Shown: positions 1 to 54,943 of the stretch, one piece after another
Layout: each line of letters starts with the position of its first letter
Numbering within the stretch: position 1 is the stretch's first letter
The notes under the pieces: generated by a model
The model's input: only the letters and a program-made list of their open reading frames with translations
Told to the model about the DNA's origin: nothing
The model's database searches: none
Position numbers and translations under genes: made by a program
Origin: a virus
Lineage: Duplodnaviria; Caudoviricetes
Reading direction: 5' to 3' (one strand)
DNA length: 56,850 nucleotides
IMG/VR virus record: IMGVR_UViG_3300046171_000223
Span: 1 to 56,850 of that record

Positions 1-151
1 AAATGCAAATAGGTTTTACCCTATTCGCAGACTTGCACCAATTGATTTCTATGATCCTTGTAGTGCTAAAATTACTAAACTAAACAAGGAGGTAGAACTA
101 GCGTTATACGAAAGCCTAATGTGGCGACGATTAGAAGAACAGTCTAAATAA
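1..151 (+). CDS. 3' part of 60-aa hypothetical protein that starts at 56819 and crosses the window junction
   Basis: ATG 56819 with TCGGAG RBS; ...CGA TT|A AAT GCA... stays open to TAA 149-151 (METREEILQRLNANRFYP...EEQSK). Confidence 0.7.
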   Translation, partial: NANRFYPIRRLAPIDFYDPCSAKITKLNKEVELALYESLMWRRLEEQSK

Positions 152-168
152 TTAAACACTCAAGAAGA

Positions 169-330
169 ATGAATCTTTTAGTCTTTATCCTACTATCTGT
201 GACGTTCACACTAGCTGGTTCTTTAGTTTGTTTCTATCTGTTCTGTCGAGTCTTGAATGCACCCTACAAACAGACAAGTTATGAACTAAATGCAGCACTA
301 AGTCACGGCAACCAAGAACCGCATATCTAA
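169..330 (+). CDS. Small membrane protein (53 aa)
   Basis: Hand translation MNLLVFILLSVTFTLAGSLVCFYLFCRVLNAPY...; N-terminal hydrophobic helix; fills the gap between genes. Confidence 0.55.
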   Translation: MNLLVFILLSVTFTLAGSLVCFYLFCRVLNAPYKQTSYELNAALSHGNQEPHI

Positions 331-349
331 AAAAGGAGCAAAAAATATC

Positions 350-385
350 TTGACCATCTCACGAGATCTCAATACAATTAGGATA
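350..385 (+). promoter_or_regulatory. Sigma70-type early promoter with CTCACGAGATC spacer and degenerate palindrome
   Basis: TTGACC(350-355)-17 bp-TACAAT(373-378). Confidence 0.8.
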
Positions 386-425
386 CTTTGAGAGTTTAAC
401 AATCCAGCTAGACTCTCAAATATCC
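381..425 (+). other. Leader RNA hairpin with ACAATCCAGC loop
   Basis: GGATA-c-TTTGAGAGTTTA pairs with TAGACTCTCAAA-TATCC; loop at 399-408. Confidence 0.7.
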
Positions 426-444
426 ACCTTTAACGGAGTGACTA

Positions 445-639
445 ATGCCGCTACAAATGATAGAAACAGACACTACCTACGATGTTGTAAACCGTGTAAA
501 GAACGGTAACAATGGGTACGCTATAACCTATGACTCGAATGCAGCAGAAGGTGCAATTAGATTCTCAAAAGATCGCTATATCAAGCGAGAATTAAAAGAC
601 CGTGACGGAGATACTTACTTCATCATTCAACCACGATAA
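445..639 (+). CDS. Hypothetical early protein
   Basis: ORF with CGGAG RBS after promoter and hairpin. Confidence 0.7.
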   Translation: MPLQMIETDTTYDVVNRVKNGNNGYAITYDSNAAEGAIRFSKDRYIKRELKDRDGDTYFIIQPR

Positions 640-652
640 TCTGAGCAATATA

Positions 653-958
653 ATGAGAAAAACTATCAATATTAAAGAAACAGTAGAGTACTTCAATAAG
701 TTATTGTTACTTAGTGATTTTAAGGCAAAAGATCGCACTGAAGGTAAGCAATTTAGGATGGGTTTGATTTCAGCAGTGGAGCATATTCTCCATACTACTG
801 GAAACTATAAAGGTTATCGGTACGTTGACAAAAAAGAAGCAATCAAACCGTATGCTTTTGGTTGTGATTATTCCAAAATCAGTAAAGATCCAGACTCAAC
901 TGAGTTATCTTTAGCTGGTGGAGATGAGTCTAGAAGACAGTATGTCATTCAATTATAG
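653..958 (+). CDS. Hypothetical early protein
   Basis: ORF track 602..958; ATG 653 preferred because it avoids the overlap. Confidence 0.7.
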   Translation: MRKTINIKETVEYFNKLLLLSDFKAKDRTEGKQFRMGLISAVEHILHTTGNYKGYRYVDKKEAIKPYAFGCDYSKISKDPDSTELSLAGGDESRRQYVIQL

Positions 959-971
959 TCGGAGATAGAAA

Positions 972-1403
972 ATGTTCGAATATCTTATTAATATATACCG
1001 TAAAGAAGCACCTTATTATGCATCCAACAACAAGGTGATGCAACAGTATCAATTTAAAAAGAGTGGAACCCTACTAAGTACTAAACGAAATGCATCCAAA
1101 CACGTTCAGGAAATCTTAAGTGCTATCCATCTTTTAGAATCTACACTCAACGGAGGGATATCTTATAATGTTCACCTAGATGTAAACATTTGCATGATAG
1201 ACTCGGACGTATCAGATAAAGATATATGGTTAGCTAGTCAGCATTTAAGCTTTAACCCTAAAAAAGAGAGGTGCTGTAATACGCAAGACTCTAAGTGGTA
1301 TACTACTCATCGTGGTGAGCTTCAATCCTTTAGAGAAAAACATTTCCCTGAACTTGCGCTTGATTCGGGGGATCTACTTAAAAAGTTTATTAGCTTAAGT
1401 TAA
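972..1403 (+). CDS. Hypothetical early protein
   Basis: 143-aa ORF with TCGGAG RBS. Confidence 0.7.
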   Translation: MFEYLINIYRKEAPYYASNNKVMQQYQFKKSGTLLSTKRNASKHVQEILSAIHLLESTLNGGISYNVHLDVNICMIDSDVSDKDIWLASQHLSFNPKKERCCNTQDSKWYTTHRGELQSFREKHFPELALDSGDLLKKFISLS

Positions 1404-1410
1404 ATTTATC

Positions 1411-1446
1411 TTGACACTCTAACTAGATCCCGAGATAATCGGGATC
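1411..1446 (+). promoter_or_regulatory. Sigma70-type promoter overlapped by perfect 8-5-8 palindrome (putative operator)
   Basis: TTGACA(1411)-17-GATAAT(1434); GATCCCGA-gataa-TCGGGATC at 1426-1446. Confidence 0.8.
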
Positions 1447-1525
1447 ATTGACGATAACTGCAAGACAGTCTCTTGAATGCAGCACTTCTAGTAGTTATCT
1501 CAAATAACTTAATCGGAGCAGACAA

Positions 1526-1825
1526 ATGAAGTTCACAGTAACAGGAACCACAGAATTTATAGTAACCGTCAACTGGCAACGCAAAGTCGATGTCACTAAA
1601 GCGCAGGTAGTCGAAGCTTTAGACTTAGAAGGTGAAGATAAGCGAGAGTGGAGAGACTCTGTTCAAGACTTTTTGGATTCAGAACAGCATCGAGATTGGG
1701 CCAATGAATTAGAAATGTGCTTATCTGTTCAATGGGATTCATCGAATGGAGATATCGAAGCGATGGATATTCAAGAAGTGGAAGTAATCCAAGATCGATC
1801 AGATATCGAAGAAGTAGAACAGTAA
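1526..1825 (+). CDS. Acidic hypothetical protein; paralogue of 7443..7784
   Basis: 26 D/E versus 9 K/R in 99 aa; AATCGGAG RBS. Confidence 0.75.
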   Translation: MKFTVTGTTEFIVTVNWQRKVDVTKAQVVEALDLEGEDKREWRDSVQDFLDSEQHRDWANELEMCLSVQWDSSNGDIEAMDIQEVEVIQDRSDIEEVEQ

Positions 1826-1833
1826 CCAACATG

Positions 1834-1850
1834 CCCCGAGATAATCGGGG
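1834..1850. promoter_or_regulatory. Intergenic palindrome (operator-like or hairpin)
   Basis: CCCCGA-gataa-TCGGGG. Confidence 0.65.
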
Positions 1851-1880
1851 TTTCACAACATCCTATAAACGAGACATACA

Positions 1881-2985
1881 ATGCCAGCATTACGAGACTC
1901 AAAAGGTAGATTCATCAAAAAGTCAGATCTCCTCAAGCAGGGAGATATAATGGAGACAAGTTACAGTCTTCAAGCAGCCGATAACTCGCCCATCGGTGAC
2001 GAGAATATGTGTGCGGTTCAGGCTGGAGCAAGTCTCGACGCTATTCTTGAAGATCCAAATATGAATTGGAGAGTTTCAAAACTCCCCATCTATGACGGTA
2101 ACGGTAACGAGATCAAGAATCGTAAAGTGATTACTCGTGATGATACTGCTCAACATTTTGAGGTAGTCTCTGATCGTTACACTATTGTTCAAAACTCAGA
2201 AAACATTGAGTTCCTCCGCCCATTGTTCGAAACAGGCAGGTTTTCTTTAGACTGTGCAGGGACTTACCGTGACGGTTCAAGGGCTTTCCTAGTTGCTAAA
2301 CGCAATGACGCTAGGCCCATTGAACCTGTCAAGGGTGATGAGATCCACCCCTTCTTTGGAATTCGTTGGGGCCACGATGGAGATACTCCAATCAAGATTC
2401 AAGCTTTTGCGACACGAGTGTTTTGCTCAAATGTTTTTCCAGCTATCGACAGAGAAGCAAAAGAATCAGAGATCACGATCAAGCACCGTCGAGGTGTGCA
2501 TGATGCGCTTGATGTCTTGTCTGATCTGACTGCTAAATCTGTCCAGAAATATGCTGACACTGAAACTGCTCTCAAAAAGCTAGCGAATGCACCGATCTCT
2601 AAGGGTAAACTGGAGACTTACTTCCGTAACGTGCTCCATCTGCCCTACAGAGATCCTGATGCTATCGTCAAGGACGATATGATTGCTGTCATCCTTGCCG
2701 AACCGTCAACGTATGACGGTATCGCAAGAAGAGTTCGACCGTCTAATGGATCTTGGTAAACGCAAGCTTGGCTGGTTGATGAAAGCCTATGAGGAAGAGG
2801 CAGACACAATGCCCTCATCCGCCCAAGAAACGTACTACCATGCTTGGAATGCAGTAACTCGACACGTTACGCATGATGCACCTACGGTCGCTAGTCAGTC
2901 TCGCTTTGAGAAAGCCATAGCTGGGCTAGGTGCAAACCTTTCAACTCGTGCATATTCGCAAGCAATTGAGCTTGCAGTTGCATAA
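1881..2985 (+). CDS. DUF932-like phage/plasmid protein, split by a frameshift near 2680
   Basis: Motifs VSDRYTIVQN, GHDG, RVFCSN in 1881..2759; C-terminal YHAWNAVTRHVTH in 2683..2985. Confidence 0.75.
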
Positions 2986-2994
2986 GTTGTTTAC

Positions 2995-3021
2995 TAAGAT
3001 CCCGAGAACATCGGGGTCTTA
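2995..3021. promoter_or_regulatory. Intergenic palindrome (operator-like or hairpin)
   Basis: TAAGATCCCGA-gaaca-TCGGGGTCTTA. Confidence 0.65.
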
Positions 3022-3048
3022 CCTTTTAATCCCTATCGGAGACAATCG

Positions 3049-3762
3049 ATGTCTATCTCATTAGCCAAAAACACAACACTGTTTTCTTCAAAGCAGGTAC
3101 TAACGCATAAAGAAGCAACCGAGTATATCCACAAACATTTTGGGTATACACCAAAGACTGCTAACCAGACACTCTACAATTGGACAACTACCGGAGCAAT
3201 CCCTTGTCAACTGGTCAGAGGAAAAAGGCATTATGCACTTAGCGATATCCTAAAGTTTTCTACTCCTAAAGATCGAAGGCGGATGATACTGGTTGCTAAG
3301 TGGAAACGAGCAAGAGGTCTTTACGCTGAGTTTGATCAGTACGCTAAATCCAAGTACGACACTGTAGGAGAAAAACAAAGAAAAGAAGCTATGTTTGCTG
3401 AAGCACTTAAACCTGTTCCAGCTATTCAAGAGGATCTGATGCTGCAACAGATGGAGACCTATACGGAACAGCCTGAGTTGCCGCTTGATCCTGTAGACCG
3501 TCTAAACAGTTTACCTATAGAAGAACGGAGAAAAGTTTTTGCTGAAGAATATATCAGTGCAAAGGACATCCTCAGAAATTATAGGACTGATGCAAAGCAG
3601 TTAGCAAGATTAGCCAGAGACAAGAAGCTAGACCGTATCACGGTAAGATGTACCAAGACCAATCAAGCTAGGTATGCTTACCCCAGAGAGCAGATAACTA
3701 AACTGTTTAAAGATCGAAACTCAGTGTTGCATTCATCAACAGGGTCAGAGGTCTTTATCTAA
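3049..3762 (+). CDS. DNA-binding protein with two excisionase/MerR-like winged HTH domains
   Basis: N-term LTHKEATEYI...TLYNW...GAIP...GKRHYALSDI; C-term YISAKDIL...QLARLARDKKL...YAYPREQI. Confidence 0.65.
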   Translation: MSISLAKNTTLFSSKQVLTHKEATEYIHKHFGYTPKTANQTLYNWTTTGAIPCQLVRGKRHYALSDILKFSTPKDRRRMILVAKWKRARGLYAEFDQYAKSKYDTVGEKQRKEAMFAEALKPVPAIQEDLMLQQMETYTEQPELPLDPVDRLNSLPIEERRKVFAEEYISAKDILRNYRTDAKQLARLARDKKLDRITVRCTKTNQARYAYPREQITKLFKDRNSVLHSSTGSEVFI

Positions 3763-3767
3763 CATCC

Positions 3768-3864
3768 AGACCTCGACATCATCGGGGTCTCACAGAACTG
3801 GACATCTGAGTGTCTATGGGGTTCGACCATTATCTGACAATTCAGCCAGATAACGGATGTCCAG
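3768..3864 (+). promoter_or_regulatory. Palindrome followed by a three-way-junction leader hairpin with ACAATTCAGC loop
   Basis: AGACCTCGA-catca-TCGGGGTCT (3768-3790); CTGGACATCTG/CGGATGTCCAG outer stem; TTATCTG/CAGATAA inner stem. Confidence 0.65.
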
Positions 3865-3886
3865 CACACTCTAATCGGAGAACACA

Positions 3887-4096
3887 ATGCGACTTACACA
3901 CCGTCAAGCTTGGAGTCTGGGGCGTTTCGACAATGCTAAACGATGGTATCCAGATAAGAAGATCGCTGAGTATTTTGAGAATTATCGATCCCCATCCAAT
4001 GCGTGGCCCTACTCTTATCTTCATGCTGCGACAACCAAGAAATTCTACAATTGGATGCGGGAGAATCATCCAACCTTACTAAACTCAATTAAATAA
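3887..4096 (+). CDS. Hypothetical phage protein
   Basis: AATCGGAG RBS; GRFDNAKRWYP...RSPSNAWPYS resembles a motif I recall from small phage proteins. Confidence 0.75.
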   Translation: MRLTHRQAWSLGRFDNAKRWYPDKKIAEYFENYRSPSNAWPYSYLHAATTKKFYNWMRENHPTLLNSIK

Positions 4097-4118
4097 ACCA
4101 TCTAATCGGAGACAATCA

Positions 4119-4580
4119 ATGATCTATTCTGTCAACGGTTCACCAGCCTTTGAACAGTACAAAGGTTGTGGCAAAGCTTGGGTAGCTACAAACAAGAATG
4201 CAGAGATCGTAGGCATTCGCTACATGCATGACTTTGAGCCTGACTTCACGAAACTCCCCAAATGGGTGCAAGCTATACGAGAATCTTACCCAACAATTCG
4301 ACAGTGGGATGGTAACTATTCTCGACGATATTGCCCTGATGCTGCTCGTTTGGGGAAACTTAAAAAGATAGCAATCGCTAACGGACATCCTGCAACAGGG
4401 CTGAATGGTGGCTACATTAAAGCCTCAAAGATTGTCCAAGATGCTAAGACACAACTCTCAAAGACTGAGACTGATCAGTTCAGTCAATATCGTCTTAACT
4501 GCAGGAAAGAACTAGCTGAACTTGGTGAGGTCAGTAGCGGAATGCTTTCCTGCTACGAGTTTATTCCTAAATACTGGTAA
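4119..4580 (+). CDS. Hypothetical early protein
   Basis: 153-aa ORF with AATCGGAG RBS. Confidence 0.75.
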   Translation: MIYSVNGSPAFEQYKGCGKAWVATNKNAEIVGIRYMHDFEPDFTKLPKWVQAIRESYPTIRQWDGNYSRRYCPDAARLGKLKKIAIANGHPATGLNGGYIKASKIVQDAKTQLSKTETDQFSQYRLNCRKELAELGEVSSGMLSCYEFIPKYW

Positions 4581-4592
4581 GGGAGACAATCA

Positions 4593-4742
4593 ATGGAATG
4601 GATACCAATGATCTTAATTTTTCTCGTAGGTGTTGCAGCAGGTATCGGGATCTGGTGGGTTACCGATCTGGTAACAAACACTGAAGATTGGCCCTTCGAC
4701 GATTGGCCTTTTGACAAACCTAACAACGGAGACAACCGATGA
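4593..4742 (+). CDS. Small membrane protein (49 aa)
   Basis: MEWIPMILIFLVGVAAGIGIWWV...DWPFDDWPFD; GGGAG RBS; ATGA overlap with next gene. Confidence 0.65.
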   Translation: MEWIPMILIFLVGVAAGIGIWWVTDLVTNTEDWPFDDWPFDKPNNGDNR

Positions 4743-5149
4743 CTAAGTTAAATAAATCCTCTATCGATTTTCCAAATCCACAACCGTGTCCGTTCGCTAA
4801 GAAAGCGATCAACACGAGGTGCGATGCTTTCCTTACTGCAGATCTGGAGATCCCTTACGAACAGCAGGATCAAGTCACACTACCTGAACTGCAGATCTAT
4901 CACTCTCGACGCACTGATGGTGTGATTGATTACTATACACAAGGACAGTATCACTATGTGGATCATATTGTCGCAAATCTAAAGCTAGTCTGTGACGATT
5001 ATGATCGCAGAGGAATTGAGTACTACCTATTCTGTGATGCTAATTATTGCGATCCAGATTGCGAGTTCGACTATGTGCTCTGGTTGCCCAATGAACCTCA
5101 TATGAATTCACTGGTCAAAGGATCTCCGAAAGTAGAGGAGGTCGCATGA
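4739..5149 (+). CDS. Hypothetical early protein
   Basis: 136-aa ORF, CGGAG RBS, coupled to both neighbours. Confidence 0.7.
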   Translation: MTKLNKSSIDFPNPQPCPFAKKAINTRCDAFLTADLEIPYEQQDQVTLPELQIYHSRRTDGVIDYYTQGQYHYVDHIVANLKLVCDDYDRRGIEYYLFCDANYCDPDCEFDYVLWLPNEPHMNSLVKGSPKVEEVA

Positions 5150-5481
5150 TACAGACAAAAGAAGTATATCTCGTTACAGTTGAATTTCAACCTATGACAG
5201 ACGGGGTGTGGGACGGAAAATTCCCAAGTCATTGGATTGTTAAAAAGTTTTACACGTTGAGTAGTGCGATTATTTTCTATCGCAAATACGCTTATCATGA
5301 AAACACTGTTTCTTGTTTTGTAAGTGCTCCAATTCAATCATTAAATACAGTGGCTTTGACGAAATGGGAGTTTGAATCCGTTGACTCTATAGTAGATAGA
5401 GAACTGGCTTTCCAATCTGGATTACCTCACGAACAGTTCGATGAGGACGATCCTCAATATGATCCCGAGGAGGTCGCGTGA
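5146..5481 (+). CDS. Hypothetical early protein
   Basis: GAGGAGG RBS, ATGA overlap. Confidence 0.7.
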   Translation: MIQTKEVYLVTVEFQPMTDGVWDGKFPSHWIVKKFYTLSSAIIFYRKYAYHENTVSCFVSAPIQSLNTVALTKWEFESVDSIVDRELAFQSGLPHEQFDEDDPQYDPEEVA

Positions 5482-5609
5482 TGGTCTTCGACTATGTCCT
5501 ACGCTTTTGTGTGTTTGTTCTACTATCATCAATTAGTTTTTTGTTGATCACACCTTTGATCCTTGACGCTTTGTCATTCTGGTCAAAAGTGTTCAAGCTA
5601 ACCTTTTAA
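5481..5609 (+). CDS. Small hydrophobic membrane protein (42 aa)
   Basis: MVFDYVLRFCVFVLLSSISFLLITPLILDALSFW...; GAGGAGG RBS. Confidence 0.55.
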   Translation: MVFDYVLRFCVFVLLSSISFLLITPLILDALSFWSKVFKLTF

Positions 5610-5624
5610 ACAGAGGATCTAACA

Positions 5625-5969
5625 ATGACAGGTAGACCTATCGAACATGATCTGACAGACGAGCAATTTGGATATCTGATTGCCAAACGAGTTGCGTACA
5701 CGAAACCTGTTAAAGGCGCATACTGGTTATGCCACTGCACCAACTGTAAAGGAGAGACAGTCAAGTCCAGAAGTAGCTTATTAAACTGTTCAATCAACTA
5801 TTCGTGCGGTTGCCTTTACGGTTTCCGTACCCGAGTAGCCAAGTTATCAGGTTATGCACTACCAGTAGTTTCTCAAGCACTCAATAACAAAGGGTTGATT
5901 TCTGTTAAGATCAGAGACCATATCAAGCGAGTGGCTAAAGAACTCAAATCTAGAAAAGGATGGAAATAA
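5625..5969 (+). CDS. Cys-rich (HNH/AP2-associated type) domain fused to a LacI-like HTH
   Basis: FGYL...WLCHCTNC...SCGC, then VAKLSGYALPVVSQALNNKGLISVKIRDHIKRVAKEL. Confidence 0.65.
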   Translation: MTGRPIEHDLTDEQFGYLIAKRVAYTKPVKGAYWLCHCTNCKGETVKSRSSLLNCSINYSCGCLYGFRTRVAKLSGYALPVVSQALNNKGLISVKIRDHIKRVAKELKSRKGWK

Positions 5970-6220
5970 TGGAAACACTGCATTTCGTCGAAAAGAACTC
6001 TACTCTCTGGCATACCCTCTGGGCTAAGTTGTGGGAGCAAAACGGCAAACCCCTTGACGAGTATGGAGTACCTGATTTCTCGGAGTACAACCCTCAGTAC
6101 AATGAAATGTGGCAATATATGGGTACAGTAGATAAAGGGTCTAATCAACAGGAGCACCAGTTCCGCCACAGAGCACACCCTTCAAACAATGAAAGAAAAT
6201 ATATTTCAATCATCATCTGA
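5969..6220 (+). CDS. Hypothetical phage protein
   Basis: TAATG coupling; WQYMGT...HQFRHRAHP motif. Confidence 0.7.
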   Translation: METLHFVEKNSTLWHTLWAKLWEQNGKPLDEYGVPDFSEYNPQYNEMWQYMGTVDKGSNQQEHQFRHRAHPSNNERKYISIII

Positions 6221-6226
6221 ATTTAC

Positions 6227-6261
6227 TTGACTGCTCACGAGATCCCGAGTATCTTGTGATC
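6227..6261 (+). promoter_or_regulatory. Sigma70-type promoter with CTCACGAGATCCCGA spacer
   Basis: TTGACT(6227)-17-TATCTT(6250). Confidence 0.75.
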
Positions 6262-6264
6262 TTA

Positions 6265-6485
6265 CCAGATCTGGTAAGGGGTTGTCCCTGTTAGTTGTCT
6301 TGTAGCTTGGACAACTAAACCAGATCTGGATGTCTGCTGAGTGGGCAATCCCGAATTATCAAGTTTGGTAGACCTAGTATTCGGGAGTGCCTTGTATGGA
6401 CTCTCATCTTTAAATTGCAAGGCTGTTTCATCGTCAACTGCTGTTCAGTAGTCAGACGGTACAAGTCCCTTGCGAGATGAGAGTC
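6265..6485 (+). ncRNA. Candidate structured RNA or long structured leader with three stem domains
   Basis: Stems 6265-6275/6319-6329, 6344-6356/6379-6391 and 6399-6409/6475-6485 with nested helices; own promoter; no ORF in the track. Confidence 0.6.
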
Positions 6486-6515
6486 ACCCTCACCTCACCT
6501 AACTATCGGAGTGAC

Positions 6516-6920
6516 ATGTTATCCAAAACTTTTAATTACTGGACAGTACTTAGTGAGTCTCCTCCAGATATTGGAGATCCCAACAAAAAGTACTTGTACT
6601 GTCAGTGTGTCTGTTGCCGCAAACGACATGTACGAGAAGACGATTTAAAAAGTGGGAAGTCAAAGTCCTGCGGTTGTTCTCGTTCTGCAGGGTTGCTGAA
6701 CGTTGTTGGTCAGAAGTTCAACTATTGGACAATTCTGTCTATCGGTAAAATTATCAACACTCATCGGTATGTTAAGAGTCAGTGCGACTGTGGCTATATT
6801 GCCAATTTAAGACTTTCAGCAATTAAACAAAATCAATCTAAATCCTGCGGTTGTACTCGTGCAAAGAAAACCAGACATCCTAGTGATAGGCAAACGCAAA
6901 GCGAGAGAGTTGCTAGCTAA
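6516..6920 (+). CDS. Protein with two tandem CxCxC...KSCGC domains and no visible nuclease domain
   Basis: FNYWTVL...CQCVCC...KSCGC and FNYWTIL...QCDCG...KSCGC; TCGGAG RBS before ATG 6516. Confidence 0.7.
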   Translation: MLSKTFNYWTVLSESPPDIGDPNKKYLYCQCVCCRKRHVREDDLKSGKSKSCGCSRSAGLLNVVGQKFNYWTILSIGKIINTHRYVKSQCDCGYIANLRLSAIKQNQSKSCGCTRAKKTRHPSDRQTQSERVAS

Positions 6921-7128
6921 TGGGGAAGCAGAAAAGCTAAACCCTGTTCGTGATGAATTCACTGGCATCGTCTTTCAGACCATCTATTGGAAACGCAAAG
7001 ACTTACACCTTCACTACCTACTGAGATTACCCGATGATTCATATCGTCAAGCACCTGAAAAACAAAACAGAACTGTTGGTGACCGAAGACTTTCAAGAAG
7101 CAGTCAACGCCAACGTCAACCAGCCTGA
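6859..7128 (+). CDS. Possible hypothetical protein (overlaps both neighbours)
   Basis: GTG-start ORF with protein-like N-terminal two thirds that fills the 6920-7034 gap. Confidence 0.35.
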   Translation: MQRKPDILVIGKRKARELLANGEAEKLNPVRDEFTGIVFQTIYWKRKDLHLHYLLRLPDDSYRQAPEKQNRTVGDRRLSRSSQRQRQPA

Positions 7129-7207
7129 TACTTGGGTTGATACTATCGATGCAGACATAGAAGACATAGAAAAATATCCTGACTACCCTGATGTATTAAC
7201 CTTTTAA
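7034..7207 (+). CDS. Small acidic hypothetical protein (57 aa)
   Basis: Hand translation MIHIVKHLKNKTELLVTEDF...PDYPDVLTF. Confidence 0.55.
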   Translation: MIHIVKHLKNKTELLVTEDFQEAVNANVNQPDTWVDTIDADIEDIEKYPDYPDVLTF

Positions 7208-7219
7208 AGAGTCTAACAA

Positions 7220-7453
7220 ATGAATCGCATGTTTATGATTAGCAGACCTCGCAATCTTCCAGATGTACCTCGTGAGATCGTAGAAGCAGCCACTGCTAAC
7301 TATCTAAAAAAGGGAGGAGTGATCAAGAAGCTACCCCCTTCTCCTGCATTTGAAGTCAACTGGAAGACCATTCAGGCTGGAGCATTTTCAAGCCTAGACG
7401 CATTCGACAATGTACCTCTGTCAGAACTGGGAGATGATTCTTATGGAGTTTAG
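7220..7453 (+). CDS. Small protein with SutA-like RNA-polymerase-binding motif
   Basis: REIVEAATANYLKKGGVIKKLPP resembles the FLxxGGxI motif of SutA-type domains. Confidence 0.55.
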   Translation: MNRMFMISRPRNLPDVPREIVEAATANYLKKGGVIKKLPPSPAFEVNWKTIQAGAFSSLDAFDNVPLSELGDDSYGV

Positions 7454-7784
7454 ATTCATGATGACAGTCCGCAAACAGATCGAATGCCATAAGCATGTAA
7501 AGATTAAGATTGCTCATCGGGATGTTATCAGTCGTTTGAACCTAAACGAAACCGATGCAAAGAATTGGAAAGATTTTGTTCCTGACTATCTTGAACAGTT
7601 TAAAGAACCTTTCGATCCTGAAGCAGAGTTAGCTAAGTATCGGAATGAAATTGAGAATATGTCCTTGATTGAGATGGTAGAAGCTCATCCAAGCAAAACA
7701 TCGCTGATGCATTTTGAACACAACACCCCTTCATCCGATTGGGATATCAGGGAACTGGATGCTGGTCGCTTGTCGCATAGCTAA
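7443..7784 (+). CDS. Hypothetical protein; paralogue of 1526..1825
   Basis: GGAG RBS before ATG 7443; ungapped similarity to the 1526 ORF. Confidence 0.7.
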   Translation: MEFRFMMTVRKQIECHKHVKIKIAHRDVISRLNLNETDAKNWKDFVPDYLEQFKEPFDPEAELAKYRNEIENMSLIEMVEAHPSKTSLMHFEHNTPSSDWDIRELDAGRLSHS

Positions 7785-7786
7785 TC

Positions 7787-7815
7787 TTGAGAGTATCGGG
7801 AGTCTGTGGTATACT
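7787..7815 (+). promoter_or_regulatory. Sigma70-type promoter of RNR
   Basis: TTGAGA-17-TATACT with TCGGG half-site in spacer. Confidence 0.7.
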
Positions 7816-7865
7816 ACAAGGTTCCCTTTCACCCTGTTTTCTTAGACCCTCTGAGCTAAAATGCT

Positions 7866-9782
7866 ATGCAATTCCCCAATGAATTATCTGAAAACATCTT
7901 TGTCCGTACCTACGCCAGATTCCTCCCAGATGAAATGCGAAGAGAAACCTACCCTGAAATGGTGGATAGGGTAGTTAGCTTTTACAAAGAAAGCTTCCCT
8001 GCTCTGTCTGAGCACGATGAAGGGATGATCCGTAAGTACATGTTGAATTTTGATGTCATGCCATCAATGCGACTAGCTTGGACTGCAGGGCCACCTGCTC
8101 GACAGTGTTCCATTGGAACCTATAACTGTTCAGCGATTGCAATTGAAAACATTCACTCCTTTGCAGAAGTGCTGTATCTCCTCCTTCATGGCACAGGTGT
8201 CGGATTTAATGCCCAGAAGAACGTAGTCTCCAAGCTACCTGTCATTGGTAAACCCCAGAATGTTCCTTCAAAAACAGTAGTCTTTGAAGACTCTAAAGAA
8301 GGTTGGGCTAGAGGTTTGTTAGAGTATCTAACGTATCTCTGGGATGGGTATGATGTTGAATACGATGTCAGTAAAATCAGACCGGAAGGCGCACCTCTGA
8401 AAACATTTGGAGGTAGAGCCAGTGGCCCACAACCTTTGATTGACACTCTAGTTTTCTGTAAGAAAATCATTCAAGGTGCAGCAGGAACACAATTAAGACC
8501 TATCGAAGTTCACGATATCATTTGTAAAATCGCTCAAAGTGTTGTGGTTGGTGGAGTTAGACGATCTGCTTTAATTTCCCTGTCAGATCTTGACGATAAA
8601 GAAATGGCTGTTGCCAAGGCTGGAGAGTTCTGGAACCACAATCCGCAACGTTCTTTAGCGAACAATTCAGTAGCTTACAACGGTAGACCGTCTGAGTCTC
8701 AGTTTTGGCAGGAGTGGGTCAATCTGGTAGCATCAGGCTCTGGAGAACGAGGCATCTTCAATCGGGAAGCAGCACTCAAAACTAGTCCTGCTCGTAGACA
8801 ATTTTCCGAGTACGACAAAGAGACTCTCTCTACGAATCCTTGTGCAGAGATCCTCCTCAAAGCATCAGGAGAGTTCTGTAACCTAACCAGTGTAGTAGTT
8901 AGACCCTCTGATGAGAAATGGGATCTAGCTTCCAAAGTCAGGGTCGCTACGATTATGGGTACGATCCAATCCAGCTTGGATAACTTTGGCTTTTTGGAAA
9001 AGCTCAATCCTGCGTGGCGAGAGAACTGTGATGAGGAGAGGTTGCTTGGATGTTCACTTTCAGGAGTAATGGATCACCCCACTCTCAGCAAAGATAAGCA
9101 GTTACTTAGAGACTTAAAAGAAGTAGCTATTCAAACCAACTGGGAGTACGCCAAGAAAATGGGAATTCGTCAAGCTGCAGCAATCACTACCGTAAAACCG
9201 GAAGGGACTGCTTCTACCTTGAATAATTCCTCATCAGGTTTTCACGCCAGATATGCCCCCTACTACATCCGCCACGTTCGCATCAACGCAACAGACCCTC
9301 TATACAAGATGATGCGAGATCAGGGTGTGCCGTTTCATCCTGAAGTAGGTCAGGAAAATCTAGAACCTGACCAAGTAAAAACTTGGGTGGCTGCTTTCCC
9401 TGTCAAATCACCAGATGGTGCAGTGACGATTGATCAGCTATCAGCTATCGACCAGTTAGAGATCTGGAAGACTCTTAAAGAGAGTTGGGCCGAGCATTCT
9501 GTTTCTGCGACCATCAACGTAGGACAGACAGAATGGGCTGAAGTAGGTCAGTGGGTCTGGGACAACTTTGACTTAATTACAGGTTTGTCCTTCCTCCCTC
9601 GGACAGATCATGTCTATAAACTGGCTCCGTTTGTTCCAGTGTCTAAAGAAGACTACGAAGAAGCGAAGGCTAAGTTTCCTACCCTTGATTACTCCCTCCT
9701 GTCTCGCTACGAATATGAAGATCACAACAACGGCACTCAGCAGGAGTGGGCTTGTGCTGGCAACAACTGTGAGTTGATCTAA
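7866..9782 (+). CDS. nrdJ: Class II (adenosylcobalamin) monomeric ribonucleoside-triphosphate reductase
   Basis: RTYAR, YNCS, GTGVGF, GGRASGP, GGVRRSA, TNPCAEI, VKPEGT, C-terminal CAGNNC; no small-subunit gene seen. Confidence 0.92.
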   Translation: MQFPNELSENIFVRTYARFLPDEMRRETYPEMVDRVVSFYKESFPALSEHDEGMIRKYMLNFDVMPSMRLAWTAGPPARQCSIGTYNCSAIAIENIHSFAEVLYLLLHGTGVGFNAQKNVVSKLPVIGKPQNVPSKTVVFEDSKEGWARGLLEYLTYLWDGYDVEYDVSKIRPEGAPLKTFGGRASGPQPLIDTLVFCKKIIQGAAGTQLRPIEVHDIICKIAQSVVVGGVRRSALISLSDLDDKEMAVAKAGEFWNHNPQRSLANNSVAYNGRPSESQFWQEWVNLVASGSGERGIFNREAALKTSPARRQFSEYDKETLSTNPCAEILLKASGEFCNLTSVVVRPSDEKWDLASKVRVATIMGTIQSSLDNFGFLEKLNPAWRENCDEERLLGCSLSGVMDHPTLSKDKQLLRDLKEVAIQTNWEYAKKMGIRQAAAITTVKPEGTASTLNNSSSGFHARYAPYYIRHVRINATDPLYKMMRDQGVPFHPEVGQENLEPDQVKTWVAAFPVKSPDGAVTIDQLSAIDQLEIWKTLKESWAEHSVSATINVGQTEWAEVGQWVWDNFDLITGLSFLPRTDHVYKLAPFVPVSKEDYEEAKAKFPTLDYSLLSRYEYEDHNNGTQQEWACAGNNCELI

Positions 9783-9787
9783 AATCC

Positions 9788-9816
9788 TTGACATACCCGA
9801 CATCTTACAAGATACT
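9788..9816 (+). promoter_or_regulatory. Promoter convergent on the integrase 3' end
   Basis: TTGACA-17-GATACT with CCCGACATC half-site. Confidence 0.6.
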
Positions 9817-9932
9817 ATCATTATCAACAGTCGATGTCGGCAAATCAAGAAAAGGCGAGTCCCTCTTGATCAGATCGTGAGTGAAGTGCAAGCATTGCTT
9901 GCACAATCTCTGCTGGAAAGCTGGCCCTCCGA

Positions 9933-9969
9933 GACTCGGGAGATGTTTGTTTATTTCTGCTCCCGAGTT
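9933..9969. terminator. Hairpin just downstream of the integrase stop
   Basis: GACTCGGGAG...CTCCCGAGTT; no clear U tract. Confidence 0.4.
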
Positions 9970-9976
9970 CCCTCCC

Positions 9977-11110
9977 CTATCTTTGCAGTGTCTCCAATGC
10001 TTTGCTGCTTGCTCCCTTTTTGTTAAGGTAGCCCATCGTAGTTTCGATGTTGCAGTGACGAGCAATCTGTTGTACGTCTGAAACAGGCACTCCAGCTTCC
10101 AGCATATGCGTAATTGCACTGGCCCGAAAACCATGCAAAGTTTTAGCAGCATCTTGCAACCCGACTTCTTTTAACACTTTATAGATAGTCTTGTTCAGCG
10201 AGTTCGGAGTAGCAGTCGCTGGAGTCCCATCTCCTTTGTCGAGAAAGTATTTCTCATCCGCCTTTCTGTTATTTAGATCCTCTAAGAGAAACTCTCGGAT
10301 CTTACCAACAATTGGTAGTTTTGCTTCTTTGTCTTTTTTTGGTTTCCAATCCAGTTCAGGAACAGCAGCAATCGTGATACTCATCTCCGACAAATCAATA
10401 TGTCGTAAAGGCAGTGACCACACTTCCCCTGCTCGGAGTCCGAAATAGCGTAACATCATCAAGGCTCTGTAGTTATTCATTGGACGATTCGGTGACCATC
10501 GTTGAACCCAAGCATCTCCTGAAGTGTCCTTTTGACTCTCTAAGTATTGCTCAAGTCTGTCGAGATCTGCTTCACTATAGGTTCTGACATTTTTGATGGC
10601 AGCATTTGGCTTTTCCAACTGTGGTGCTTTTGCAAGTAAACCTTCAGCAACCGCATAGTTGAGCATCATCTGGACAGGTTTAATATATGACCGAATTGTG
10701 TTTGCAGAACGTCCTGATTCTTTTAACTCTTTAATCATCAGACGAGTACTGACGTTTGTGATTTCTCCGATTTGTTTGTCTGAATTTTGTTTTTCAAAAA
10801 AAGCTAACCCCATTTCGTAGATCTTGATCGTCTTTGGATTCACCGACAAGTTAGCTAACCAATGTTCTTTGTACTCTTTAACGGTTGGGGTCTTTTGTCT
10901 ACTCGGTTGTCTTGGGGTTTTTAGACCGTCAAACTGTCGCAGCATTGCTTCGACAATTTTCTTATGTAGATAGTCTTCAGGATCTTTAGCGTTCTCCACT
11001 TCTTTGACGTTACAAAGAACCGTCATTCTCTCTTTGTTTTGAGTGGAGAACCGCAAGTAGTATTGTGGCTCAGATCCTTTATGCCACTTTTTGATTACGG
11101 TTCTCTTCAT
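9977..11110 (-). CDS. int: Tyrosine recombinase/integrase
   Basis: GLRAGE (R), LHGFRAS (HxxR), ARH, TTMGY catalytic motifs; central SAM-like domain. Confidence 0.92.
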   Translation of the reverse strand: MKRTVIKKWHKGSEPQYYLRFSTQNKERMTVLCNVKEVENAKDPEDYLHKKIVEAMLRQFDGLKTPRQPSRQKTPTVKEYKEHWLANLSVNPKTIKIYEMGLAFFEKQNSDKQIGEITNVSTRLMIKELKESGRSANTIRSYIKPVQMMLNYAVAEGLLAKAPQLEKPNAAIKNVRTYSEADLDRLEQYLESQKDTSGDAWVQRWSPNRPMNNYRALMMLRYFGLRAGEVWSLPLRHIDLSEMSITIAAVPELDWKPKKDKEAKLPIVGKIREFLLEDLNNRKADEKYFLDKGDGTPATATPNSLNKTIYKVLKEVGLQDAAKTLHGFRASAITHMLEAGVPVSDVQQIARHCNIETTMGYLNKKGASSKALETLQR

Positions 11111-11117
11111 AAATCCT

Positions 11118-11531
11118 TTAGCGTTTAGCGATTGGTGCGAGTGCCGCTTTCAGCAAATCTGATTCACCCTCTTCATTATCCATTCGTTTAATAATATCTC
11201 TCAACATTAGATTATTTCTCGCTACGATTTCCCGAATCATACGGACATCTTCAGAGATCATTTCCGTATTTACGGATTGGGCAGATCGCTTAACGATAGT
11301 TGTATGTCGAGCATCATCGGTTGCTTGACGTATTTTAACGGCAAGATCGTCAGGTAGTCCCAGTAGCTCAACAGCATCAAAGTAGGTATCGTCAGGGTAC
11401 TGATACCCACACTCTAACCTACTGATTTTCTTGATGTCCATCCCTGTTCTTTCCATAAACTGGAGTTGAGTCATCCTCAAATCTTTCTTTCTCACTGATT
11501 TGATTAGGTTTCCCAGTTCTATGTTATCCAT
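11118..11531 (-). CDS. XRE-family HTH repressor candidate
   Basis: LGNLIKSVRKKDLRMTQLQFMERTGMDIKKISRLECG; directly upstream of int and divergent from replication genes. Confidence 0.8.
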   Translation of the reverse strand: MDNIELGNLIKSVRKKDLRMTQLQFMERTGMDIKKISRLECGYQYPDDTYFDAVELLGLPDDLAVKIRQATDDARHTTIVKRSAQSVNTEMISEDVRMIREIVARNNLMLRDIIKRMDNEEGESDLLKAALAPIAKR

Positions 11532-11568
11532 GCGTCCTTTGTTTTTAGAATTAATATGAAAAAAATGC

Positions 11569-11597
11569 TTGACTCTCGTGAGTGCTCACTTTAATCT
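11569..11597 (+). promoter_or_regulatory. Promoter of replication operon
   Basis: TTGACT-17-TAATCT; spacer contains CTCGTGAG and GTGAG-tg-CTCAC. Confidence 0.65.
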
Positions 11598-11637
11598 CAT
11601 ACTTCATCGGGATCAACAACGATCCTGACTTGAGATA

Positions 11638-11666
11638 AGTGTCATATTTGTCTCAATATAAGTCAA
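11638..11666 (-). promoter_or_regulatory. Possible repressor/integrase promoter
   Basis: Minus strand TTGACT(11666-11661)-17-GACACT(11643-11638); weak -10. Confidence 0.4.
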
Positions 11667-11710
11667 GGAAAACTTTGACATTATTTAAAAAACTTTATTT
11701 TCGGAGTGTC

Positions 11711-13030
11711 ATGAAATTCAAAGGGAAACTGATAGGGGGTAGGCACAAACCCTATCCCTATCAGCGTAAGATCATCCGTCAGATGGCGAGAATGCCAGTG
11801 GCAATTCTCGGTGCAGAGATGGGAACTGGAAAGACTCTTATGTCTTTGATGTCAATGGAAGCCAGTGGTATCCAGAGACTTCTCGTGCTCTGTCCAGCAA
11901 TTGCAGTTAGAAACTGGTACAGGGAAGCCAAGCTTTGTGGATTTACAGGTGAAATCAGAGTGATGTCTTATGACATGGCAAGAGTTCCTAAACGGTCTAA
12001 AGAACTAAAAGCTTGGGGGTTTGATGGGATCATTCTTGATGAGGCACACTATTTAAAGAATTCTCAGGCTAAACGTACTCGTGCTGTTTACGGTGTAGCC
12101 TGTGATGGCAAAAGAGGTTTAGTCGAAGGGTGTGACAGGATATATGCACTGAGTGGCACGATAGCACCGAATAACGTGACCGAGTTGTATCCTCACTTAC
12201 GGTTTATGACTCCGACAAGGATCAAGTCTACCTTTTGGGGTTTTCGTACTCGCTACTGCTCTCTTAGAGAAACTCGCTACGGTGTCGAAATAACAGGCGC
12301 AAGGAATGTAGCCGAGTTGAAAGAGATCATGCGAGACATCTACATCCCACTACGACAGAAGGATGTCCTACCTGATCTACCTCCGCTAGTGATTAATGAT
12401 CGTGAGGTTGATCCAATCGACGCAAAAGAAGCGTTGCTGGAAATCAAGGAGTTGGAGAAACTGCCAGAGATCCAAGCAATGGTTGAGCATTTGGAAAATG
12501 CCGCAAGACCATCACCGTTGAATATGGGCGAGCATGTTGCTACACTCAGACGGTTGATTGGATCAGCCAAAGTCGGTGCAGCTTGCGAATATATACTCGA
12601 CATAGTCGAGAACTCACCAGAAAAGCTGATTGTTTTTTGCTACCATAAGCATGTCATGCAAGCTTTACTGGAGATTCTGCAGAAGAAGAAAGTCGATACT
12701 GTACTGGTGGATGGTAGTTGTAGCCAGAAACAACGTGCAGTAGCGATTGAAAGATTCCGTACCAAACCAGAGTGTAAGGTTTTTATCGGACAACTCAATG
12801 CTTGCGGTACGGCAATCACATTGACAGAAGCAAACCAAGTATTGTTTATTGAGCAGGATTGGACTCCAGCTAATAATCTGCAAGCAGCCAAAAGAGCGCA
12901 CAGAATTGGGCAGGATCGTCCGGTCTATGTAAACAACCTAATGTTGCACAATTCAATCGATGAGAGAATCAGTGCAGCTTTGACTGCTAAAACCCTACAC
13001 CTGATGGAGATCGGATTATGTGCAGCATAA
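11711..13030 (+). CDS. SNF2-like superfamily 2 helicase
   Basis: EMGTGKT, LDEAH, LSGT, QAAKRAHRIGQ; TCGGAG RBS before ATG 11711. Confidence 0.92.
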   Translation: MKFKGKLIGGRHKPYPYQRKIIRQMARMPVAILGAEMGTGKTLMSLMSMEASGIQRLLVLCPAIAVRNWYREAKLCGFTGEIRVMSYDMARVPKRSKELKAWGFDGIILDEAHYLKNSQAKRTRAVYGVACDGKRGLVEGCDRIYALSGTIAPNNVTELYPHLRFMTPTRIKSTFWGFRTRYCSLRETRYGVEITGARNVAELKEIMRDIYIPLRQKDVLPDLPPLVINDREVDPIDAKEALLEIKELEKLPEIQAMVEHLENAARPSPLNMGEHVATLRRLIGSAKVGAACEYILDIVENSPEKLIVFCYHKHVMQALLEILQKKKVDTVLVDGSCSQKQRAVAIERFRTKPECKVFIGQLNACGTAITLTEANQVLFIEQDWTPANNLQAAKRAHRIGQDRPVYVNNLMLHNSIDERISAALTAKTLHLMEIGLCAA

Positions 13031-31727: not shown

Positions 31728-34700
31728 TTAACTTTCCTCCGCTTGAGGTCGCATTGCTTGTTGTTCCCAGATCCCCTAACGTGACATCTGTTTCTACAAT
31801 ATAAACTTTACCACCATCCTCTGGATTTACATGTGTGTACTGAAGCACATGACCGATTGTTACCAGAAGGAAAAATAGGCTTTTTCAGTAACAGTGTTGG
31901 TCGTGCTAAAGTTGTAGGTTCCGATACTTGTACCATCTAAAAACCACTCAAGATCAACATCACCTTTATACGTTATCTGAAACTCAGCGTGAGTCCCGAA
32001 TCCCCCGATAAAATCGTGGTGGTAACGCTACAAACCTAGTCCAAAGCAACTCGACATCATCTGTTGATGTGCCATTATTGTAGATATGGGGGATGTAAAC
32101 CGTATGATAGCGGGTTAAAATAGATTCGGGCTACATCTACATTTTGCTGAGTAGTAATAGTGTAGGTTTGTGTCTGGGGAGATCCGTCTAGAAAAATCTT
32201 GGGAACTAGACTTCCACTACCCCGAAAGCCGTACTCCGCATAATGAAACAGTTGCTGCTGGGGCAAAGCTTTCAATCGGAACAGCCTCAAAGTTTTCATT
32301 CTGTAGATTGATCGCAGACGCAGTTTCCATATGCGAAATATAACCGGATACCGATGCTGGTAGCGTCATCCGTCTGCCACGAAACGTGTTATGAAACGGA
32401 AGGGCTATCGTGCTAATCAGACTCCCCATCAACGCTAATAATGACGGTGGGTTGCCCGCTATATTCCAATCGGGAATGCGGAGTATACGCTACGTTGCAT
32501 CGGGGGAAAATTACTTTGTATGGCTGTTTGCAGTGCTGCTAAGTCGGCAGCATTTAGGACAAGGCTCAGAAGTAGATCGAATTGAGCCTGAATGTTGGAA
32601 GTGTTATCGAAAACTTGTTGAAAAGACTCTCTGACTTTTTGATCGTCCTAAAAGAAAATAAGTTTCAAAATCTGCATTTCTGGAAACTGTCATGTTGCCA
32701 CTATCTCATAATCAGTGTCGATCCAATCTATGATTCCGTTCCAATCACGCACTTCAACCCACCAAGTATCTGCCATCGGCAGTCCATAAGCATTTGTGCG
32801 GCTTGCTGGCAGAAAAACACGTTTTGGTTCAGATTCTAAACCGGACGTAATCGTTACCGGAAAATCATAGGAAATCGTTTTATAACTGTAATAACTAAAC
32901 ACCGTTATAAGTAGATCTTGGTACAGAGTTAAATTCGTAAATTGTACCTGTGGTTGACTGCTCCCAAACACACCACCCGGAATGATTTCACTTTGTGCGT
33001 TTGGCGCAGTATATTGAGTGATTGAATTGATTACGAAAGAGGTGGTTGTGGACGAAAACCGTCATCCCAGATTGTAAACTAGTGTTTTGCCAATATCCGC
33101 TTTCTCCCGTGTAGATATAGACCGGCCCACCGGAAATAAAATATTCAGACAAATTTCTTGAAATTGCTCTTCCATCTAAATAAATACGAATATTACCATT
33201 GCCGTTACCATTAATAGTCACACTGCGAATCAGTTTTAGCGTACCAAATGCACCCCCAATCAAAACCCCGTGTTGTGTAGTTTAGCGGCAACCGTTGACC
33301 TGTATTCCCTTCAATAAATTCCTCTACGAGAATACAGTTTGTTTTCAGAGGGTTTATAGACTAGTACACTTGGGAGGGGTGTAGGTTGTACCGGAGAGGC
33401 TATTTGTCGGTTTTGCGGGTCCCATCTTCGTTCAAGTCAATTCCAATAATCGGAAACCCCGTTAGCGAGAAATCAACGATATAGCCTTTTTTCTGTAACC
33501 CCGTTGATGACGTAATACTTATCATTAAACTGACTAGCATTGATATTTGCACCAGCATTTTAAAATATCTAAATCCTCAAAACGTCCCTCTTGTCAGGTT
33601 GGTTACTTTTGACCCATCGTAAAAACAAATACCAGATTGTGATACCCCAAACTAGATAGCTTCCGACCAGTGCGATGCTTCGTTCTTCGTTTGCCAATAA
33701 ACCTTCCGTGGTGGCTAACTTGATCTTTCGCATTTCATTAGGTCGTGATCCAAAAACCCGGTAGGTTGCATTCTTTGTCCAAACGATCAATTCACCGGGG
33801 TACGAATGAATGCCAGTGATCTCCTCATCGAACTGGACATAACTACCCGTATCCCAGTTACGAGGGTTGTTGTAATCACTGACGAAAAGGAAACTTCCAG
33901 CTTTATTATCCCCTCCTCCGTAGTAACTAGTATTTGTTCTATCTGTACCAACTCCGAAGAAGAAATTGTTAGACTCTTCAAGAAACTTTAAATAGTCAGG
34001 AACACCTGTCAATGTGCCACTGGAATCCAACCCTCCACATCCTAGTCCATTGGGCCACCCTTCCAGAAAATCACACTCCCCACTCAAATAGGTTCCATTC
34101 CCATCATCTAAATCAAACACGTCAAAGCAACGAGTCAGGGCAAAAGTTCCAGTAATGGCGATATTTGTGGGATGAGGTTCGATCACTCGGACAGATAGTC
34201 GAAAATCTGCAGCTTGATACCGTTGGTCAGCACCATCAACTAACGTAAAATAAGGAGCAGGACTTGCGTTTCCAGCAAATTCATATGACCCGGAAACGCT
34301 AGAACTCGTTGAACCGTTGACGCTAACTTTTGTATCCTGATAGGCCACCCAACTGACAGTGTAGGTTTTTGTAGAGTCTAAGTTACTGAGTGAAATCTGT
34401 TTTGAGGTTGCATTGTAGCTAAAGAAATTCGGCACTCCCGTAGTCGGGTCATAGCTAGTCGGTACGAAATAACATAGATCAACACTTGATCTGGAGTCTC
34501 TACGTTCCAGCCGATAGCAGACTAATGGGTCAGAGCCAGAATAGGATGACGGTGCAGTGACATTAAATGTCAGACGTTGGGGTGTGTGAACGTAGTCACC
34601 ACCGGAATGATTGCCTCCGAAAATATACGAATTATTGGTAGCTAATGAAGCTAATCGATAGGTCTGCGATAAACTGGGAATATATTGATTCGACACTTCT

Positions 34701-54333: not shown

Positions 54334-54440
54334 AAGGCAAAAACCATGCAAATTTTCTGATCATCTTACTACAAAACGAAAAAAAAGCCAAGACTAGCTA
54401 TCAAATAGAAAAAAATAGATAAACGATCAAAAGACCATTA

Positions 54441-54850: not shown

Positions 54851-54943
54851 ATTTTTGACAGAGATCTCACAAGTATTTTGAATTTTTATTTTCAATTATT
54901 TCAACTACTTACAGTTTTTCATACAGTTTAAAGAAAAAAATGC

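Follow-up and report, generated by a model that had tools for sequence, protein, structure and literature searches.

A shared ten-base apical loop in two early leader hairpins of an uncultured marine phage probably marks a small regulatory RNA element

A 5′ stabiliser hairpin is carried by ompA-type messenger RNA (mRNA). In phages, an excerpt of one account describes T4 gene 32 mRNA as stabilised by a 5′ hairpin (PMC8948821), and an excerpt of another reports that in the T4/RB69 gene 43 operator the top ten bases, including the loop, are conserved, in a hairpin that stands about 40 nucleotides (nt) before the AUG (PMC3014915). By analogy, a protein-bound operator such as that of gene 43 appears to be the closest precedent for the element described here, a 10-base apical loop (ACAAUYCAGC) shared by two leader hairpins, H1 (381–425) and H3 (3798–3864), in the early region of an uncultured, marine, podovirus-like phage. 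The window, by which we mean the whole stretch of DNA that was analysed, is the linear IMG/VR record IMGVR_UViG_3300046171_000223, with 56,850 bases, 43% G+C and an estimated completeness of 67%. The shared loop probably marks a small, undescribed regulatory RNA element, which is best called a lineage-private phage 5′-leader cis-regulatory or stabiliser hairpin.

Both hairpins lie on the + strand. H1 (−18.6 kcal/mol, z-score −6.55, 0 of 200 shuffles as good) consists of a basal helix of 5 base pairs (bp), a 1-nt bulge and a 12-bp stem that carries the 10-nt loop ACAAUCCAGC at 399–408; its core at 387–420 (−12.8 kcal/mol, z −5.46) is the portion expected in transcripts started from promoter P350. 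H3 (−23.8 kcal/mol, z −2.55, 3 of 200 shuffles as good) is built from an 11-bp lower stem, a small side branch (3816–3830) and an apical branch (3830–3853) with the loop ACAAUUCAGC at 3837–3846, and its apex reaches a z-score of −6.07 when folded alone. The original prediction had placed leader hairpins at 381–425, 1448–1503 and 3798–3864, all of which fold (shuffle z −2.55 to −6.55), and had quoted ACAATCCAGC (399–408) and ACAATTCAGC (3837–3846) as the loops of the first and the last; each of these words is exactly the entire 10-nt apical loop, in identical register.

The two loops are identical in 9 of 10 letters and follow one plan, an unpaired A, a C-G pair enclosing the hexaloop AAUCCA or AAUUCA, and an unpaired C. 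Their likeness continues four pairs into the stem below the loop, and the gap-free alignment of 390–417 with 3828–3855 contains an 18-nt block, TYTR-ACAATYCAGC-YAGA, in which 15 of 18 letters are identical. The closing pair is A-U in H1 and G-C in H3, and two pairs further down the U.G of H1 is replaced by C-G in H3. In the predicted structures the basal helices, GGAUA/UAUCC at 381–385/421–425 in H1 and GGACA/UGUCC at 3800–3804/3858–3862 in H3, have four identical pairs and one compensated pair, and the middle of the stems is the sole stem part that cannot be aligned. The statement that the stems share no sequence is therefore incorrect, because likeness exists both in the top four pairs and in the basal GGAYA/URUCC helix; nor does loop conservation with stem turnover stand as the signature of a structured RNA, given that there are two copies only, that their stems are partly alike and that the hairpin at 1448–1503 (H2) is no member. 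Compensatory pairs make up 5 of 10 between H1 and H3, a count reached by 16 of 500 shuffles, and this is weak evidence, since loop-aligned hairpins show such pairs by construction. When both strands of the whole window were searched with filters off, a covariance model built on the H1/H3 apex gave 38.1 bits for H1 and 37.7 bits for H3; the next-best match scored 13.4 bits, at an expect value (E) of 0.65, and the window holds no further copies.

The evidence on chance is mixed and differs from test to test. Taken as a bare word, the loop has 2 exact matches and, with at most one mismatch, 8 matches against 7.86 expected, which is no enrichment; this and the post hoc definition of the motif by a reader scanning 57 kilobases (kb) are what speaks for a pure coincidence of two unrelated hairpins. 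Among the 47 + strand hairpins with a stem of at least 7 bp and a 10-nt loop, however, H1 and H3 are the only pair within one mismatch, where about 0.04 pairs would be expected (1081 pairs × about 3.5e-5, our own arithmetic). The remaining shared loops of at least 10 nt in this hairpin census all fall within obvious sequence repeats, and a shared loop of at least 10 nt arose in 0 of 30 block shuffles. The loop census and the block shuffles thus favour a non-chance origin, and with register and strand in agreement, both hairpins in early leaders, and likeness that reaches into the top four pairs and the basal helix, coincidence is quite improbable. As to a partner site for the loop, its reverse complement was found only with one mismatch, within coding regions at 4400, 13523 and 16482 of the window.

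The proposed leader location was borne out, as the stable hairpins lie on the coding strand, downstream of promoter cassettes and upstream of ribosome sites. P350 (350–378, +) precedes H1, with a −35 TTGACC at 350–355, a 17-nt spacer containing CTCACGAGATC and a −10 TACAAT at 373–378 (10 of 12 consensus positions), whereas H3 follows a degenerate cassette at 3754–3790 (+; TTTATC, 17-nt spacer, CATCAT), which by our own count has 7 of 12 consensus positions and aligns in 24 of 45 columns with P1411, the promoter before H2. Across the early region, a stable hairpin begins 2–15 nt past the −10 in six of eight cassettes (54980–55015, 56721–56782, H1, H2, H3 and 6265–6329), with z-scores from −2.55 to −7.10. 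Because transcription normally starts about 7 nt past the −10, these hairpins would be 5′-proximal structures, transcript starts and 5′ ends being predicted here from the −10 hexamers. The loops of H1 and H3 end 37 and 41 nt before the start codon, and the ribosome sites are unpaired in folds of the full leaders, 375–445 and 3763–3887.

We tentatively favour, at somewhat less than an even chance, the reading that H1 and H3 are RNA 5′-leader stabiliser hairpins and that a single trans-acting factor recognises their shared apex; the action of the hairpins as RNA, the start sites, the stabiliser role and the binding factor are what we infer. H1 and H3 would belong to a group of at least six stable stem-loops that open the early transcripts, with the generic job of capping the 5′ end of early mRNAs against 5′-end-dependent decay and of defining processed cistron ends. 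A stabiliser fits better than a translational trap, since the ribosome site is left unpaired. It needs no particular loop, so the shared apex calls for something more, and the 18-nt apex (U-Y-U-R, ACAAUYCAGC, Y-A-G-A) may be the sequence-specific site of a trans-acting factor, most likely a protein, which would couple the fates of the otherwise unrelated operons at 445–1403 and 3887–6220. At H3, the succession of a 3′ GC hairpin, an 8-nt single-stranded linker and a 5′ hairpin might also act as a processing joint that yields two protected cistrons.

The known systems introduced above share parts of this arrangement. H1 and H3 resemble the T4 gene 32 and ompA-type stabilisers in having a stable stem-loop near a predicted 5′ end and a free ribosome site, but those stabilisers need no particular loop, and the transcript starts here are predicted. 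With the gene 43 operator they share a conserved apex, as expected of a protein-bound translational operator, with 9 of 10 loop letters and 3 of 4 top pairs identical and the fourth pair compensated, although in two copies only, and a spacing of 37 and 41 nt before the AUG compared with about 40 nt. Unlike that operator, the copies here stand before unrelated small genes rather than an autoregulated polymerase gene, their loop and stems are larger and without sequence likeness to it, and the binding protein is hypothetical.

Several observations weigh against the favoured reading of a factor-bound stabiliser. Support amounts, on present sequences, to two copies in one phage, and searches of viral, metagenome and genome contigs with hallmark and neighbouring proteins, the promoter word and the 18-nt module returned no relative with a readable early region. 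The degenerate cassette before H3 lies outside the list of promoter-like sites, so that of all the hairpins H3 has the weakest claim to a 5′-proximal position. The early open reading frames (ORFs) scanned, most of which matched no family whatever, include none with an RNA-binding or antitermination family. Of 5000 shuffles, 431 reached the best ungapped local similarity of the two leaders, and the reverse complements fold as well or better (−19.7 versus −18.6 kcal/mol for H1, −28.8 versus −23.8 kcal/mol for H3), so thermodynamics is no proof of a + strand RNA. Finally, 19 early intergenic regions (1503 nt) contain 51 exact shared blocks of at least 9 nt, whereas 200 shuffles averaged 3.4 and never exceeded 9, so a patch of likeness could persist through residual paralogy or patchy recombination alone.

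This last point leads to the main rival, in which H1 and H3 are generic 5′ hairpins without loop-specific function and the shared apex is what common descent or patchy recombination among cassettes has left over. The early leader cassettes are, judged from their sequences, mosaic paralogues of one another, and besides the excess of shared blocks and the insignificance of the H1/H3 local similarity taken alone, a 9-mer is common to H1 and the 3′ arm of H2 (414/1498), H2 and the hairpin at 56721–56782 share an apex, and the six hairpins have five different loops. Drift, however, should change an unpaired loop faster than a stem, and it is the loop that is 9/10 identical and the mid-stems that cannot be aligned. 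In addition, the first gene behind H3 and the gene behind H1 are unrelated, giving no alignment at E up to 100, so the shared apex does not come from a recent block duplication. On balance, the leftover account is a serious possibility that we nevertheless doubt.

The folding of both strands also bears on a DNA-level element, that is, an operator or an extruded cruciform bound by an early DNA-binding protein. Clear palindromes lie across the −10 in other cassettes, and the ORFs at 5625–5969 and 6516–6920 contain putative DNA-binding modules, both of which would suit such an element. Yet the conserved part of H1 and H3 is the non-palindromic centre and not the half-sites, arms of 12–17 bp with G.U pairs suit RNA better, and every copy is on the transcribed strand of leaders, which together make a DNA element far-fetched.

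An antitermination signal acting on RNA polymerase, put-like or nut-like, would let the enzyme pass downstream hairpins. The lambda nut site combines a boxA motif with a neighbouring boxB hairpin and an N-type protein; boxB has a short stem of about 5 bp and a small, purine-rich, GNRA-like loop. In HK022 put, two adjacent stem-loops just past an early promoter act on RNA polymerase and need no protein factor. Like nut and put RNAs, H1 and H3 are promoter-proximal structured RNAs in predicted phage early transcripts, GC hairpins lie behind several early genes, and H3 and the hairpin at 6265–6329 are two-branched, in H3 with both branches inside a closing stem. H1, however, is a single hairpin, and a nut/boxB identity, one of the candidates originally put forward, is at odds with both loop size and stem length, the 10-nt loops standing on stems of 12 bp (+5) in H1 and 7 bp (+11) in H3. 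The GC hairpins (1429, 1835, 3001, 3772 and 56495) lie outside the H1 and H3 operons and mostly lack U-runs, leaving little to antiterminate, and the early ORFs scanned yielded neither an N-like protein, as in lambda nut, nor a Q-like family. Antitermination is accordingly a very improbable account. Intrinsic termination was also considered and rejected, since H1, H2 and H3 are absent from the 15 terminator-like sites and no T-run follows any of them.

Alternatively, these hairpins may be sites, like those of the T7 early region, at which host RNase III would cut the polycistronic early RNA so that stabilising hairpins remain at the ends. A T7-type RNase III site is a nearly continuous duplex of about two turns, in which the cut often falls at an internal loop. 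H1 and H3 are likewise leader or intergenic hairpins with family likeness among sites in a host-polymerase type of early region; H3 occupies an intergenic position, with a 3′ GC hairpin on one side and the following ribosome site on the other, and H1 has 17 pairs with one bulge. The helices here are shorter or split by a junction, however, with H1 under two helical turns and the H3 helix divided into 11 + 7, and the likeness resides in the apical loop and not around an internal loop. To our knowledge the apical loop sequence has no part in bacterial RNase III recognition, so processing would leave the shared loop unexplained, and we consider RNase III sites very unlikely.

H2 (1448–1503, +; −17.5 kcal/mol, z −3.09, 0 of 200 shuffles as good) had been named as a third carrier of the loop. 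Its TGAATGCAGC (1474–1483) matches in 7 of 10 positions in a shifted register, its hexaloop being UUGAAU at 1473–1478, and the covariance model of the H1/H3 apex does not list H2 at E up to 10, so that H2 was removed from the set. Its apex instead resembles that of the hairpin at 56721–56782, with the hexaloop UUGAAU in both and, by our own count, 16 of 23 flanking letters alike. A somewhat unlikely extension would divide the early operons into two regulons by leader apex, class A with ACAAUYCAGC (H1, H3) and class B with UUGAAU and a shared 5′ flank (H2, 56721–56782), each apex being the operator of an RNA-binding factor of phage or host, or else a factor-independent RNA that modifies RNA polymerase. 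We also note that the H3 loop (3836–3847) could pair over 8 bp with the apical loop of 56721–56782 (56747–56757; −7.2 kcal/mol, 3 of 300 shuffles). A kissing interaction between them is not supported, as 36 pairs were tried and H1 does not form the same pairing (70 of 300 shuffles).

That the motif is undescribed agrees with our searches. Rfam gave 0 matches at gathering score over the whole window, and at E up to 5 over 1–7000 only a chance snoRNA-like match (18.3 bits against a gathering score of 41). Literature excerpts containing the loop 10-mers include none on phage RNA among the matches listed, the sequences looking primer- or probe-like, and the excerpts on early promoters and conserved hairpins that were retrieved give no account of the element.

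Among nucleotide searches, megablast and blastn of 1–6000 gave no match to cultured phages, and blastn of the two leaders at E up to 10 gave one chance match (E 2) inside a tail gene for one leader and none for the other. In viral contigs, the promoter pattern had 0 matches, a looser promoter word had 21 single matches with no relative among them, and the neighbouring proteins of 237 and 153 amino acids (aa) had 0 relatives. For the 251-aa protein there were 490 relatives at about 40% identity throughout, 80 of them being kept, and the ribonucleotide reductase had 43, the best at 49%. PolA, the family A DNA polymerase, had one relative in viral contigs at 77% identity, on a 34.9-kb contig without the early region, in which neither the promoter word nor the apex covariance model was found. 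Alignment searches extended to other collections gave a best identity of 49% for the reductase in metagenome contigs, among the matches listed, and of 35% for PolA in genome contigs. The 18-nt module had 39 matches in viral contigs, about the chance expectation, and only one of them (L235) had a complementary closing pair with at least four further stem pairs, inside an ORF on the opposite strand; a loop match in L004 was discarded, as it lies inside coding sequence.

Near-identical DNA is present in seawater metagenome runs. The pieces from runs X2 and X3 are long, with 0–6 differences, and strain contigs covering 212–421 (X2) and 3562–3980 (X3) show 0 differences over the elements studied here, a point in favour of the factor-bound stabiliser. 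The marine run X5 contains a diverged relative, with 35 differences over 382–624 and 37 over 3402–4237, a divergence of roughly 4–14%. Among the differences listed, which are those at depth 9.69 or more, the only change near H3 is at 3868, outside the hairpin.

The cassettes behind which the leader hairpins stand are a general feature of the early region. Sigma-70-type promoters with 17-nt spacers lie at 54944, 55268, 55650, 56686, 350, 1411 and 6227, most of the spacers containing CTCACGAGATC or a variant. P1411 (1411–1439, +; TTGACA, 17-nt spacer, GATAAT) is the best in the region with 11 of 12 consensus positions, and its −10 sits within a GC hairpin, GATCCCGA-GATAA-TCGGGATC; P1411 and P350 are the top two of 26 promoter-like sites in 1–12000, where shuffles give 22.2. 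P56686 and its leader hairpin span 56686–56782 (+; TTGAAA, 17-nt spacer, TACAAT), with the hairpin at 56721–56782 folding at −21.8 kcal/mol (z −5.23), and P54944 with its hairpin at 54980–55015 spans 54944–55015 (+; TTGACC, 17-nt spacer, TAATAT; hairpin −9.1 kcal/mol, z −3.06). P6227 is followed by a Y-shaped leader hairpin at 6265–6329 (cassette 6227–6329, +; hairpin −34.0 kcal/mol, z −7.10), whose plan of lower stem, small branch and apical branch is that of H3. Every cassette is closed by a fixed Shine–Dalgarno (ribosome-site) block around ATCGGAG, and AATCGGAG occurs 7 times against 1.57 expected.

GC hairpins of the form CYCGA-N4-ATCGGGG stand directly past stop codons at 1835–1850, 3001–3016, 3772–3787 and 56495–56510, and the pattern has 9 matches against 0.19 expected, with two palindromic sites counted on both strands. 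The copy before H3, folded as 3768–3790 (−12.3 kcal/mol, z −4.34), lies directly past the stop codon of ORF 3049–3762. Further GC hairpins are found at 1429–1444, where one spans the −10 of P1411, at 32003–32019 and at 46306–46321 (− strand). A T-rich tail is seen only behind the GC hairpin at 2995–3021, and the relative from run X5 retains the stem of the hairpin at 3001 under a different loop.

Several other features of these regions were observed. The promoters at 55276–55313 and 55658–55695 are near-identical; in each, a weak −10 (CATCCT) is spanned by a perfect inverted repeat of 11 bp, CTCACGAGATC-N13-GATCTCGTGAG, and by sequence these repeats look like operators of a dimeric DNA-binding regulator. 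The spacers of P350 and P6227 contain the CTCACGAGATC half-site again, that of P56686 has a variant of it, and GATC is present in every copy. A 12-nt block, CTTAGACCCTCT, is common to the leader of P55650 (55695–55706) and that of the ribonucleotide reductase gene (7841–7852). The 255-nt leader at 6262–6515, between P6227 and the gene at 6516, is very strongly structured, folding at −98.2 kcal/mol (z −5.33, 0 of 200 shuffles), and the Y-shaped hairpin at 6265–6329 is its first domain; the leader had no Rfam match (E up to 5, 1–7000) and, from its predicted fold, may be a non-coding RNA or a long regulatory leader. Between the late (−) and early (+) arms, an AT-rich non-coding region of about 590 nt (54440–54860) carries iteron-like repeats, ACAAGACAG(A/G)CAA, in both orientations and may be a replication origin or a regulatory array. 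In an unrelated IMG/VR contig (L260, 1829–1857), a single promoter-like site that shares the spacer word reads TTGACA, N3, CTCACAAGATC, TATAAT, followed by a ribosome site and start codon, with no hairpin behind it.

On the minus strand, from about 20 to 54 kb, the record encodes a T7-type portal, the large terminase and tail proteins, and an integrase gene is also found on this strand; the plus strand encodes ribonucleotide reductase, helicase, exonuclease, family A DNA polymerase and primase. The polymerase has at most 38.2% identity to any of 50,697 deposited phage records, and the record, at its estimated 67% completeness, showed no gene for a T7-type RNA polymerase. The early region comprises small + strand genes from about 54.9 kb to the end of the record and from base 1 to about 7.8 kb. 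Within it, the H1-headed operon (445–1403, +) contains ORFs 445–639, about 653–958 and 972–1403, all without family assignment, and the H3-headed operon (3887–6220, +) runs from ORF 3887–4096 through 5960–6220.

Family searches of the early ORFs scanned returned only DUF932, weak HTH_17 (helix-turn-helix) and LacI matches, and a phrog_374 module. The DUF932 gene lies in two frames, 1881–2759 and 2683–2985; contigs of runs X2, X3 and X6 have one base fewer at 2698–2700, which would give a single ORF of about 367 aa, near the 355 positions of its matching profile, and the frameshift in the window is either an assembly error or strain-specific. The proteins of ORFs 5625–5969 and 6516–6920 share a module corresponding to positions ~194–256 of phrog_374, annotated as HNH endonuclease (E 1.7e-09 and 4.9e-22, respectively), and the former also has a weak LacI-type helix-turn-helix match (E 0.00026), below the Pfam cut-off; both proteins are candidate DNA-binding regulators by these profile matches.

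Hardly anything is known of how uncultured marine phages regulate their early genes. Were the apex a true recognition site, it would represent a compact RNA–factor pair that switches two operons together and can be tested with reporters, as well as a motif for annotating the early regions of this lineage. If the two-regulon reading were true, the leaders would constitute a new phage cis-regulatory RNA family, private to an uncultured marine lineage. Should the shared apex instead reflect residual paralogy, the useful product would be the map of the early region, with its host-type promoter cassettes, 5′ hairpins, GC hairpins and fixed ribosome-site block.

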